Shown: piece by piece, positions 2 through 526 of the stretch
How the letters are laid out: every line of letters begins with the position of its first letter
Numbering within the stretch: position 1 is the stretch's first letter
Sequence record: EF517076.1
Strand: one strand, 5' to 3'
Length of the DNA: 526 nucleotides
From: a phage
Position numbers and translations under genes: made by a program
Notes under the pieces: model-generated
Databases searched by the model: none
Seen by the model: the letters and a program-made list of their open reading frames with translations, nothing else
What the model was told of the DNA's origin: nothing

Positions 2-238
2 GAAGGGGCTCGTCCGGTTAAACAGGTTGCTGGCGGTCTAGCTGGTCTGGCTGGTGGTACTGATGAAGCACAGATGGTGGAAGTACCACAAGCTGCCGCA
101 CAGATTGTTGACGTACCTGAGAAAGAGGTTTCCACTGAGGACGAAGCACAGACAGAAAGCGGACGCAAGAAAGCTCGTGCTGGCGGTAAGAAATCCTTGA
201 GTGTAGCCCGTAGCTCCGATGGCGGTATCAACATTTAA
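2..238 (+). CDS. 7.3: Partial CDS (5' end lies upstream of the window): C-terminal 78 aa of a small Gly/Ala-rich, basic phage protein resembling T7 gp7.3 (tail-associated / adsorption protein)
   Basis: Frame 2 is open from base 2 to TAA at 236-238; frames 1 and 3 on the same strand carry stops (TAA 19-21; TAG 39-41, TGA 198-200, TAG 204-206). Translation: EGARPVKQVAGGLAGLAGGTDEAQMVEVPQAAAQIVDVPEKEVSTEDEAQTESGRKKARAGGKKSLSVARSSDGGINI*. Arg codons are all CGN, typical of highly expressed E. coli phage genes. Assignment to gp7.3 is from memory of the T7 protein, not a search. Synteny with the downstream HNH gene matches the T7 7.3-7.7 arrangement. Confidence 0.75.
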   Translation, partial: EGARPVKQVAGGLAGLAGGTDEAQMVEVPQAAAQIVDVPEKEVSTEDEAQTESGRKKARAGGKKSLSVARSSDGGINI

Positions 239-240
239 TC

Positions 241-246
241 AGGAGG
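241..246 (+). promoter_or_regulatory. Shine-Dalgarno ribosome-binding site (AGGAGG) for the downstream HNH gene
   Basis: Exact AGGAGG at 241-246, 5 nt upstream of GTG at 252-254; it begins 2 nt after the upstream stop codon, implying co-transcription and possible translational coupling. Confidence 0.7.
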
Positions 247-251
247 TTATC

Positions 252-526
252 GTGGAAGACTGCATTGAATGGACCGGAGGTGTCAACTCTAAGGGTTATG
301 GTCGTAAGTGGGTTAATGGTAAATTTGTGACTCCACATAGGCACATCTATGAGGAAACATATGGTCCAGTTCCAACAGGAATTGTGGTGATGCATATCTG
401 CGATAACCCTAGGTGCTATAACATAAAGCACCTTACGCTTGGAACTCCAAAGAATAATTCCGAGGACATGGTTACCAAAGGTAGACAGGCTAAAGAAGAG
501 GAATTAAGCAAGAAACTTACAGAGTC
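252..526 (+). CDS. 7.7: Partial CDS (3' end lies downstream of the window): HNH endonuclease, HNH_3-type homing-endonuclease-like protein resembling T7 gp7.7
   Basis: GTG start at 252 preceded by AGGAGG; frame open to the window end (91 codons). Translation: (M/V)EDCIEWTGGVNSKGYGRKWVNGKFVTPHRHIYEETYGPVPTGIVVMHICDNPRCYNIKHLTLGTPKNNSEDMVTKGRQAKEELSKKLTE... Shows the N-terminal C-x-E-W-T-G...GYG motif and the HNH core (H-R-H...V-M-H-I-C-D-N...N-I-K-H-L-T-L-G-T) typical of phage HNH_3 family endonucleases. Gene symbol is by recollection of T7 gene order, not by search. Confidence 0.88.
   Translation, partial: MEDCIEWTGGVNSKGYGRKWVNGKFVTPHRHIYEETYGPVPTGIVVMHICDNPRCYNIKHLTLGTPKNNSEDMVTKGRQAKEEELSKKLTE

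Follow-up and report, generated by a model that had tools for sequence, protein, structure and literature searches.

Phage T7 gene 7.7, a probable freestanding homing-type HNH endonuclease gene at the junction of genes 7.3 and 8

The window, by which is meant the whole 526-nt stretch of DNA analysed here, aligns over its full length with positions 19597-20122 of phage T7 at 98.7% identity (7 mismatches, 0 gaps). According to the T7 annotation, it corresponds to the junction of gene 7.3 and gene 7.7. The gene order in T7 is 7.3, then 7.7, which is annotated as an HNH endonuclease, and then the portal gene 8. The following features were located in the window.

2-238, plus strand: 3' part of gene 7.3, comprising the last 78 codons and the TAA stop at 236-238 (translation and T7 annotation).
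231-239, plus strand: first copy of the 9-nt direct repeat ACATTTAAT, whose second copy ends gene 7.7 (T7 20233-20241).
241-247, plus strand: Shine-Dalgarno sequence AGGAGGT for gene 7.7 (sequence, alignment with phage N30 and junction strings).
248-526, plus strand: left end of an insert of about 396 nt, relative to phages lacking the HNH gene (N30 alignment).
252-526, plus strand: 5' part of gene 7.7, with a GTG start and 91 of 130 codons, the frame remaining open to the end of the window (open reading frame and T7 annotation).
336-461, plus strand: HNH_3 nuclease core, residues 29-70 (Pfam match and invariant columns of the allele alignment).

The product of gene 7.3 is a virion or tail-assembly 'host range' protein, and its part in the window matches the Pfam family VirionAssem_T7 (E=6.7e-47, profile positions 22-99 of 99). 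Between the 7.3 stop and the start of gene 7.7 lies a spacer of 13 nt that contains AGGAGGT; the start codon in T7 is likewise GTG, at 19848. The reading frame is as the initial annotation had described it from the letters, from the upstream stop and the AGGAGGT motif to the GTG at 252 and the 91 open codons. At its far end, gene 7.7 closes with TAATG, in which the stop codon shares bases with the gene-8 ATG, and a GGAG within its last codons (TGG AGA CAC ATT TAA) precedes that ATG by 11 nt. The two copies of ACATTTAAT are 406 nt apart, the second one lying beyond the window. Searches of both strands of the 526 nt for Rfam families, sigma-70-like promoters and terminators gave no match, and a repeat scan of the same stretch found nothing relevant. 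A 67-aa open reading frame on the minus strand (228-431) was rejected, being inside gene 7.7 and without support.

T7 gp7.7 (NP_041994, 'HNH endonuclease') is the same gene, as the comparison proposed at the outset confirmed, with the same GTG start, neighbours and spacer. Over the 91 residues the window departs from it by three amino acid changes (L25F, D68N and G82E), all of them G:C to A:T changes; none hits an invariant core residue, and D68 adjoins the invariant N69. The seven nucleotide differences from T7 consist exclusively of G-to-A and C-to-T changes, five of them non-synonymous. In the natural relative YpP-Y, changes relative to T7 go in all directions. In the same 526 nt, the published mutagenised T7 isolates AY264775, AY264776 and AY264778 carry 3-10 differences from T7, the isolates K and K115 among them 9-10. 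The mutagenised isolates K, K115 and P82 were considered as a match for the window and none fitted, only position 453 being common, with K. The exclusive G-to-A and C-to-T pattern suggests that the window probably derives from a laboratory line of T7 that had been mutagenised chemically or had otherwise accumulated deaminations.

By profile score, the gene can be assigned to Pfam HNH_3 and the His-Me finger nucleases, in line with the initial call of an HNH_3 endonuclease gene. The 91-residue fragment matches HNH_3 (PF13392) significantly, with E=3.9e-13 and 49.3 bits against a cut-off of 24.8, residues 29-70 corresponding to profile positions 4-45 of 46. HNH endonuclease families of PHROG also match gp7.7, the best with E=1e-28. 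Across seven alleles found at this junction, H29, R30, C50, D51, N52, P53, C55, N57, H60 and N69 are invariant. They are kept in T7, YpP-Y, C5, 13a, Vec13 and fPS-53, and all of them are intact in the window, where N69 is encoded at 456-458. Catalytic roles for individual core residues of gp7.7 may be assigned by analogy with the HNH_3 family. The C-terminal third of the protein, beyond the window, looks helix-turn-helix-like: residues of about 96-126 in full-length T7 gp7.7 gave helix-turn-helix matches that were all sub-threshold (E 0.014-0.04), and a profile of seven sequences weakly matched helix-turn-helix proteins in the PDB (E=0.012). A search of the PDB with the full-length gp7.7 sequence yielded nothing significant, and that with the seven-sequence profile yielded only the weak helix-turn-helix matches, with I-HmuI at E=0.28. 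A single-sequence AlphaFold2 model of the 91-aa fragment had a mean pLDDT of 42.7, too low for use in judging the beta-beta-alpha-metal fold expected of the family.

A shift of base composition at the gene boundary had been noted from hand counts, and these counts proved exact: bases 1-240 contain 128 G+C (53.3%) and bases 241-526 contain 123 G+C of 286 (43.0%; Fisher's test, p=0.023). The maximum-likelihood change point falls at base 225, which precedes the 7.3 stop by 11-13 nt (permutation p=0.044), which agrees with the boundary as described. A contrast this large between blocks of 240 and 286 nt is found at 1.8% of T7 genome positions, and the contrast of T7 itself at this junction, 9.4 points, is matched at 3.2% of T7 positions. 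The GC step is real and lies at the gene boundary, and it is only mildly unusual. Codon positions 1 and 2 account for all of it, the gp7.3 tail being rich in Gly and Ala: GC1/GC2/GC3 are 0.72/0.50/0.385 in the 7.3 part versus 0.48/0.39/0.41 in the 7.7 part. Gly, Ala, Pro and Arg together account for 38% of residues in the gp7.3 tail versus 21% in the gp7.7 part; in gp7.7, the abundant residues are Lys, Asn, Ile, Phe, Tyr and Met. Since GC3 is equal on both sides, the GC step alone is therefore no proof of foreign origin.

The equal GC3 would suit a reading in which gene 7.7 is an old, vertically inherited gene of the T7 group that has been lost many times, the GC step being a by-product of protein composition. 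Eight of the 51 T7 genes have a lower total GC than gene 7.7 (44.8% in T7, against 48.4% for the genome), so that it is no outlier and falls within the T7 range, which also suits such descent. Nevertheless, codon choice argues against it. When the synonymous choices of each T7 gene were compared with those of the rest of the genome, the null being simulated genes with the same amino acid sequence, gene 7.7 was atypical for T7 (z=-3.1, p about 0.0015), ranking fifth of 51. The five most atypical genes are 3.8, 3, 2.8, 5.3 and 7.7, that is, four small endonuclease-like genes together with endonuclease I (gene 3). As a sign of acquisition, then, the compositional shift fails in the form of plain GC content, which is an amino acid effect, and holds in the form of codon use.

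Comparison with relatives lacking the gene defines the insert. Phage N30 (Teseptimavirus) reads TAATCAGGAGGTGACACATGGCTGAG, in which the 7.3 stop and the same Shine-Dalgarno sequence lead directly into gene 8, with no open reading frame between. The T7 junction reads TAATCAGGAGGT[TATCGTG...7.7...TTTA]ATGGCTGAG. Homology to N30 ends after AGGAGGT and resumes exactly at the gene-8 ATG, so that about 396 nt in T7 (19844 to 20239, the right end being beyond the window) stand where N30 has a 5-nt spacer. AGGAGGT is the last stretch homologous to the HNH-less relatives, in which it serves portal gene 8; judged by this alignment, gene 7.7 has taken over the ancestral ribosome-binding site of gene 8. 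By its layout, the gene is also freestanding: it has its own translation signals and occupies the intergenic position between the 7.3 stop and the gene-8 ATG, with no intron or intein.

The initial annotation had held that the gene is variably present among relatives, and its suggested synteny comparison found that in most of them 7.3 directly abuts portal gene 8. Many relatives match bases 1-247 of the window only. An artificial empty-site query was composed of 7.3, the Shine-Dalgarno sequence and the first 600 nt of gene 8; from the 1,278 phage records that it matched, an evenly spaced sample of 60 rows was taken. In this sample, 37 of the 38 non-T7 records spanning the junction gave a single unbroken alignment with no insert; these include CICC 80001, NC-A, Vi06, phiYeO3-12 and phages of Klebsiella, Salmonella and Pseudomonas. 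Two-piece matches with an insert between were given by all five T7 records and by C5. Only 115 records contain T7-type 7.7 DNA. They comprise laboratory variants of T7, nine records of Yersinia phages (those listed include YpP-Y, YpsP-G, Y and phiA1122) and, at 68% identity, a few C5-like phages. The empty sites keep an intact Shine-Dalgarno-ATG arrangement with no remnant of gene 7.7, which again speaks against vertical descent with repeated loss.

The distribution bears on a possible role in packaging as well. T7 packages its DNA from concatemers using gp18/gp19, and a packaging-associated HNH nuclease of the HK97 gp74 type would work together with portal and terminase. The single point in favour of such a role for gp7.7 is the position of its gene immediately upstream of portal gene 8. 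The gene is absent from most relatives, which package DNA alike and with the same portal, and gp7.7 consists of HNH_3 and a helix-turn-helix-like tail, unlike a short PF01844-type protein. A packaging role has next to no probability, being effectively refuted by the dispensability of the gene in the deletions described below.

Other HNH alleles are found at the same 7.3|8 junction, with the following protein identities to T7 gp7.7.

C5 and HZ2R8 (Teseptimavirus): 71%.
13a (Teseptimavirus): 51%.
Vec13 (Kayfunavirus): 45%.
fPS-53 (Helsettvirus): 45%.

With gp7.7 these alleles share the locus, a length of 130-133 aa, the invariant core and a common C-terminal ending, TWR(H/S)(I). Their left junctions differ: C5 has the ancestral spacer followed by ATG, whereas 13a, Vec13 and fPS-53 overlap the 7.3 stop (ATGA). 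A short direct repeat, GACACATGGAG, is present at the insert edge of C5. The occurrence of HNH genes at this junction in three genera is a further point that vertical descent could claim. Relatives of gp7.7 also exist elsewhere: HC13 carries one of 49% identity at the gene-2.8 position, and tblastn detected weaker relatives in about 1,500 phages, adjoining many different genes, the hosts including Klebsiella, Mycobacterium, Acinetobacter, Streptomyces and cyanobacteria. HZ2R8 was considered as a second insertion site and discarded, its 'primase/helicase' neighbour being a mis-annotated gene 8. Paralogy of gp7.7 with T7 gp5.3 was likewise rejected; the two have no similarity, and 5.3 belongs to the PD-(D/E)XK family (Pfam), not to HNH.

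The alleles and their flanks have discordant histories. In T7, N30, 13a, C5 and YpP-Y, gp8 is 98.7-99.4% identical and gp7.3 is 89-96% identical, whereas the HNH gene of the same five phages is absent or 51%, 71% or 99% identical. Between T7 and C5, the synonymous sites of gene 7.7 are saturated (pS 0.79) versus a dS of 0.30 in the adjoining gene 8, and so the two alleles are far older than the common ancestry of the genomes at the flanks. Nonsynonymous divergence between the same alleles is much lower (pN 0.20 against the pS of 0.79), which indicates that the protein has been constrained by purifying selection. The 7.7 copies of T7 and YpP-Y depart from their flanks in the opposite direction. 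Their divergence is 9.0% in 7.3 and 3.9% in gene 8, and 1/393 in 7.7. The tract 19829-20565 (737 nt, gene 7.7 and the first 325 nt of gene 8) contains 1 mismatch; the rate outside it, 238 mismatches in about 4,550 nt (about 5.2%), predicts about 38. A tract of the same asymmetric shape is seen in an independent pair, C5 and HZ2R8, with 15 mismatches in 811 nt (the HNH gene and about 400 nt of gene 8) versus 6.8% elsewhere, and its left edge lies at the 7.3 stop codon, as in T7 and YpP-Y.

At the level of sequence comparison, these data establish that the history of gene 7.7 differs from that of its flanks and is in part recent. It had been proposed at the outset that the gene was acquired independently into a conserved late-gene module, and the phylogenetic incongruence with the flanks supports this. 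Vertical descent is very improbable in this light, for it would have to accommodate both the saturated synonymous divergence between the T7 and C5 copies, set against a dS of 0.30 in gene 8, and the 99.7% identity of the T7 and YpP-Y copies between flanks that are 4-9% diverged. The T7/YpP-Y tract resembles a homing or co-conversion tract. Alternatively, the low-divergence tracts could have arisen from ordinary mosaic recombination that happened to include the gene.

Deletions in T7 demonstrate that gene 7.7 is dispensable. It was lost in genome-reduced T7 mutants obtained by CiPGr (PMC9825161), and the authors of a T7 engineered to be without 2.8, 7.7 and 3.8 present it as a phage devoid of three homing endonucleases (bioRxiv 10.1101/2025.09.07.674715). 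In the T7 mutant clone OL964749, gene 7.7 is removed except for its last 25 nt, which include the GGAG before the gene-8 ATG. The retention of this segment in a viable phage is in keeping with the idea that gene 7.7 is a decaying, inactive endonuclease gene, late in its homing cycle and kept only for the ribosome-binding context that its 3' end gives to gene 8. The GTG start, suggestive of low expression, would suit that idea, as would the lack of any reported gp7.7 activity. Searches of the literature gave annotation-level statements and deletions for gp7.7 and nothing on cleavage enzymology, target site or inheritance in mixed infection, which counts against the homing reading. However, the reading frame is intact and the invariant core residues are retained in T7, YpP-Y, C5, 13a, Vec13 and fPS-53, pN is well below pS, and the near-identical T7/YpP-Y tract argues for recent movement. 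Decay is accordingly considered improbable, if less so than vertical descent.

It has also to be asked whether gene 7.7 is kept because it benefits the phage, by blunting host defence or excluding co-infecting competitors, and is not purely selfish. Recently, phage HNH homing endonucleases, including plasmid-expressed T7 gp3.8, were reported to attenuate the GAPS4 defence, and T7 lacking 2.8, 3.8 and 7.7 formed smaller plaques on GAPS4 cells with plaque numbers unchanged (bioRxiv 10.1101/2025.09.07.674715). The purifying selection between the T7 and C5 alleles would accord with such a benefit. Nevertheless, the GAPS4 effect comes from gp3.8 and from the triple deletion, not from gp7.7 alone, most relatives are without any gene at the 7.3|8 site, and the loss of 7.7 carried no obvious cost in genome-reduced T7 (PMC9825161). 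A benefit of this kind is unlikely, though the most credible of the competing accounts; it has partial support for the HNH genes of T7 taken as a group, and it is compatible with homing and not exclusive of it.

Taken together, positions 252-526, the first 91 codons of T7 gene 7.7, very probably belong to a freestanding homing-type HNH endonuclease gene, with a homing cycle that we infer. The reading builds on an ORF-sized insert with intact HNH core residues, on dispensability and on an independent and partly recent history; the homing step itself is proposed by analogy with characterised freestanding homing endonucleases and from the shapes of the tracts. In a mixed infection with a relative lacking 7.7, gp7.7 would bind through its putative C-terminal helix-turn-helix region and would nick or cut the rival genome at the empty 7.3|8 junction or up to a few hundred bases beyond it on the downstream side, with the 5' part of gene 8 as the probable target. 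The T7 recombination machinery would then repair the break with the HNH-bearing genome as template, and the rival would thereby receive gene 7.7 together with about 300-400 nt of the neighbouring portal gene. The co-conversion-like tracts thus predict a target for gp7.7 at the junction or within the first 300-400 nt or so of portal gene 8.

A broader proposal can be put forward tentatively, with somewhat more doubt than confidence: the 7.3|8 junction of T7-like phages may be a contested landing site, which at least three deeply diverged HNH lineages invade and in which they replace one another. These lineages would be the T7/YpP-Y type with a C5 subtype, the 13a/Vec13 type and the fPS-53 type. 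Each HNH protein would be an active endonuclease directed against the portal gene of rivals, within its 5' few hundred bases. The tracts of HNH gene and 325-400 nt of gene 8, which end sharply at the 7.3 stop codon, would be the footprints of recent homing among phages of E. coli and Yersinia, and the edge repeats ACATTTAAT (T7) and GACACATGGAG (C5) would have been left behind by the original insertions, mediated by microhomology.

Gene 7.7 has been part of the T7 sequence since 1983. It is already known and annotated as an HNH endonuclease, and recent work counts it among the homing endonucleases of T7; the initial annotation had rightly presented it as a known phenomenon of the T7 group and not as a novelty. 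The finding matters little as a discovery, and its value lies in the clear example that it offers. Where GC content steps at a gene boundary, amino acid composition alone can be the cause, while the real signal of mobility is carried by codon choice, the comparison with empty sites and the incongruence between flanks and insert.

Within T7, genes 2.8 and 3.8 also belong to HNH_3 (E=7e-6 and 3e-15, respectively). Like 7.7, they are small, dispensable and freestanding with atypical codon use; they differ in lying at other genome positions, in the DNA-metabolism region, and gp3.8 is distant from gp7.7 (41% identity over 51 residues). Outside T7, I-HmuI of the Bacillus phage SPO1 (PDB 1U3E) is an HNH homing endonuclease that nicks one strand. 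It has an N-terminal HNH core followed by a C-terminal helix-turn-helix, an overall layout like that predicted for gp7.7, and positions 13-125 of the junction-allele profile align to residues 36-158 of 1U3E, although with E=0.28 this alignment is not significant. I-HmuI is encoded by an intron, whereas gp7.7 is freestanding.

A further comparison is offered by the freestanding homing endonucleases of the T-even phages. Seg proteins are GIY-YIG enzymes and Mob proteins belong to an HNH lineage different from that of gp7.7; for Seg and Mob, cleavage and marker exclusion have been demonstrated experimentally. The arrangement described for the T-even genes, and as a general pattern in phages ('Nuclease genes occupy boundaries of genetic exchange between bacteriophages', PMC10448857), is one of nuclease genes placed intergenically among conserved genes, sporadic in occurrence and flanked by co-converted DNA. 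This pattern fits the asymmetric tracts of low divergence at the 7.3|8 junction.

Across the HNH gene and the portal gene 8, tracts of low divergence could be recognized in two pairs of phages, T7 with YpP-Y and C5 with HZ2R8, the latter two carrying HNH alleles diverged from that of T7. Background divergence outside both tracts amounts to 5-7% in these pairs.

T7 19829-20565, compared with YpP-Y: low-divergence tract, 1 mismatch in 737 nt
C5 2752-3562, compared with HZ2R8: low-divergence tract, 15 mismatches in 811 nt

Both tracts span the HNH gene together with the first 325-400 nt of gene 8, and in both pairs they end abruptly at the 7.3 stop codon. The shape of the tracts points to a putative cleavage site either at the 7.3/8 junction itself or near the 5' end of gene 8.

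Direct repeats have also been found at the edges of the HNH insert, with a different sequence for the T7 allele (ACATTTAAT, 9 nt) and the C5-type allele (GACACATGGAG).

Window 231-239 (T7 19827-19835): ACATTTAAT, upstream copy, end of gene 7.3
T7 20233-20241: ACATTTAAT, downstream copy, end of gene 7.7
C5 2755-2770 and 3132-3147: GACACATGGAG, flanking the C5-type HNH allele
HZ2R8 2490-2505 and 2867-2882: GACACATGGAG, flanking the C5-type HNH allele

Since the two copies of the T7 repeat end genes 7.3 and 7.7 and lie 406 nt apart, the unit of Shine-Dalgarno sequence and gene 7.7 is bracketed by the repeat; in YpP-Y the upstream copy is present with one mismatch. This repeat could be the scar of a microhomology-mediated insertion, or it could be a coincidence, both reading frames ending in Ile-TAA. 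The copies flanking the C5-type allele are 377 nt apart, exact over 11 nt and identical at 14 of 16 positions overall. Of these, the left copy corresponds to the ancestral gene-8 spacer plus ATG, and the right one sits within the codons for the C-terminal D-T-W-R of the C5-type HNH protein. A further imperfect direct repeat lies inside gene 7.3 itself.

Window 68-87 and 98-117: imperfect direct repeat, 20 nt, 85% identity

Its copies encode AQMVEVP and AQIVDVP, a small tandem-like duplication within the acidic, Ala/Gln-rich part of gp7.3.

Several annotations in the relatives deserve mention. The gene-8 start is annotated 15 nt inside the HNH gene in C5 and HZ2R8, not at the conserved ATGGCTGAG. 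GenBank labels the HZ2R8 portal gene 8 (L013, the HZ2R8 sequence, 2877-4502) as 'DNA primase/helicase, gene product 4', which is an annotation error. In Yersinia phage fPS-53, the annotation divides the portal gene that follows the HNH gene into two ORFs, g029 (480 nt) and g030 (930 nt; together L007 2903-4308); possible reasons are a frameshift, an error in sequencing, or a portal gene split in two beside the endonuclease gene. In addition, DNA polymerase gene 5 of the close T7 relative 13a is annotated as two joined pieces (NC_011045 12616-15331; L003 1-231), suggesting an intron or intervening element.

Among the 51 genes of T7, synonymous codon choice is most atypical in five nuclease genes, 3.8, 3, 2.8, 5.3 and 7.7, with z values between -5.4 and -3.1. 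Among these five is also gene 3, for endonuclease I, though it is essential-type and not homing-endonuclease-like.

Compared with wild-type T7, the window carries the following differences.

Window 63, 219, 324, 356, 453, 496 and 504: single-base differences from T7

All seven are G:C to A:T transitions (on the + strand, five G>A and two C>T), and five alter an amino acid, namely G>D at two places in gp7.3 and L25F, D68N and G82E in gp7.7. The window probably stems from a mutagenised laboratory line of T7 not represented among the sequences searched, as such a pattern looks like the signature of a chemical mutagen (nitrosoguanidine-type) or of deamination rather than natural divergence.
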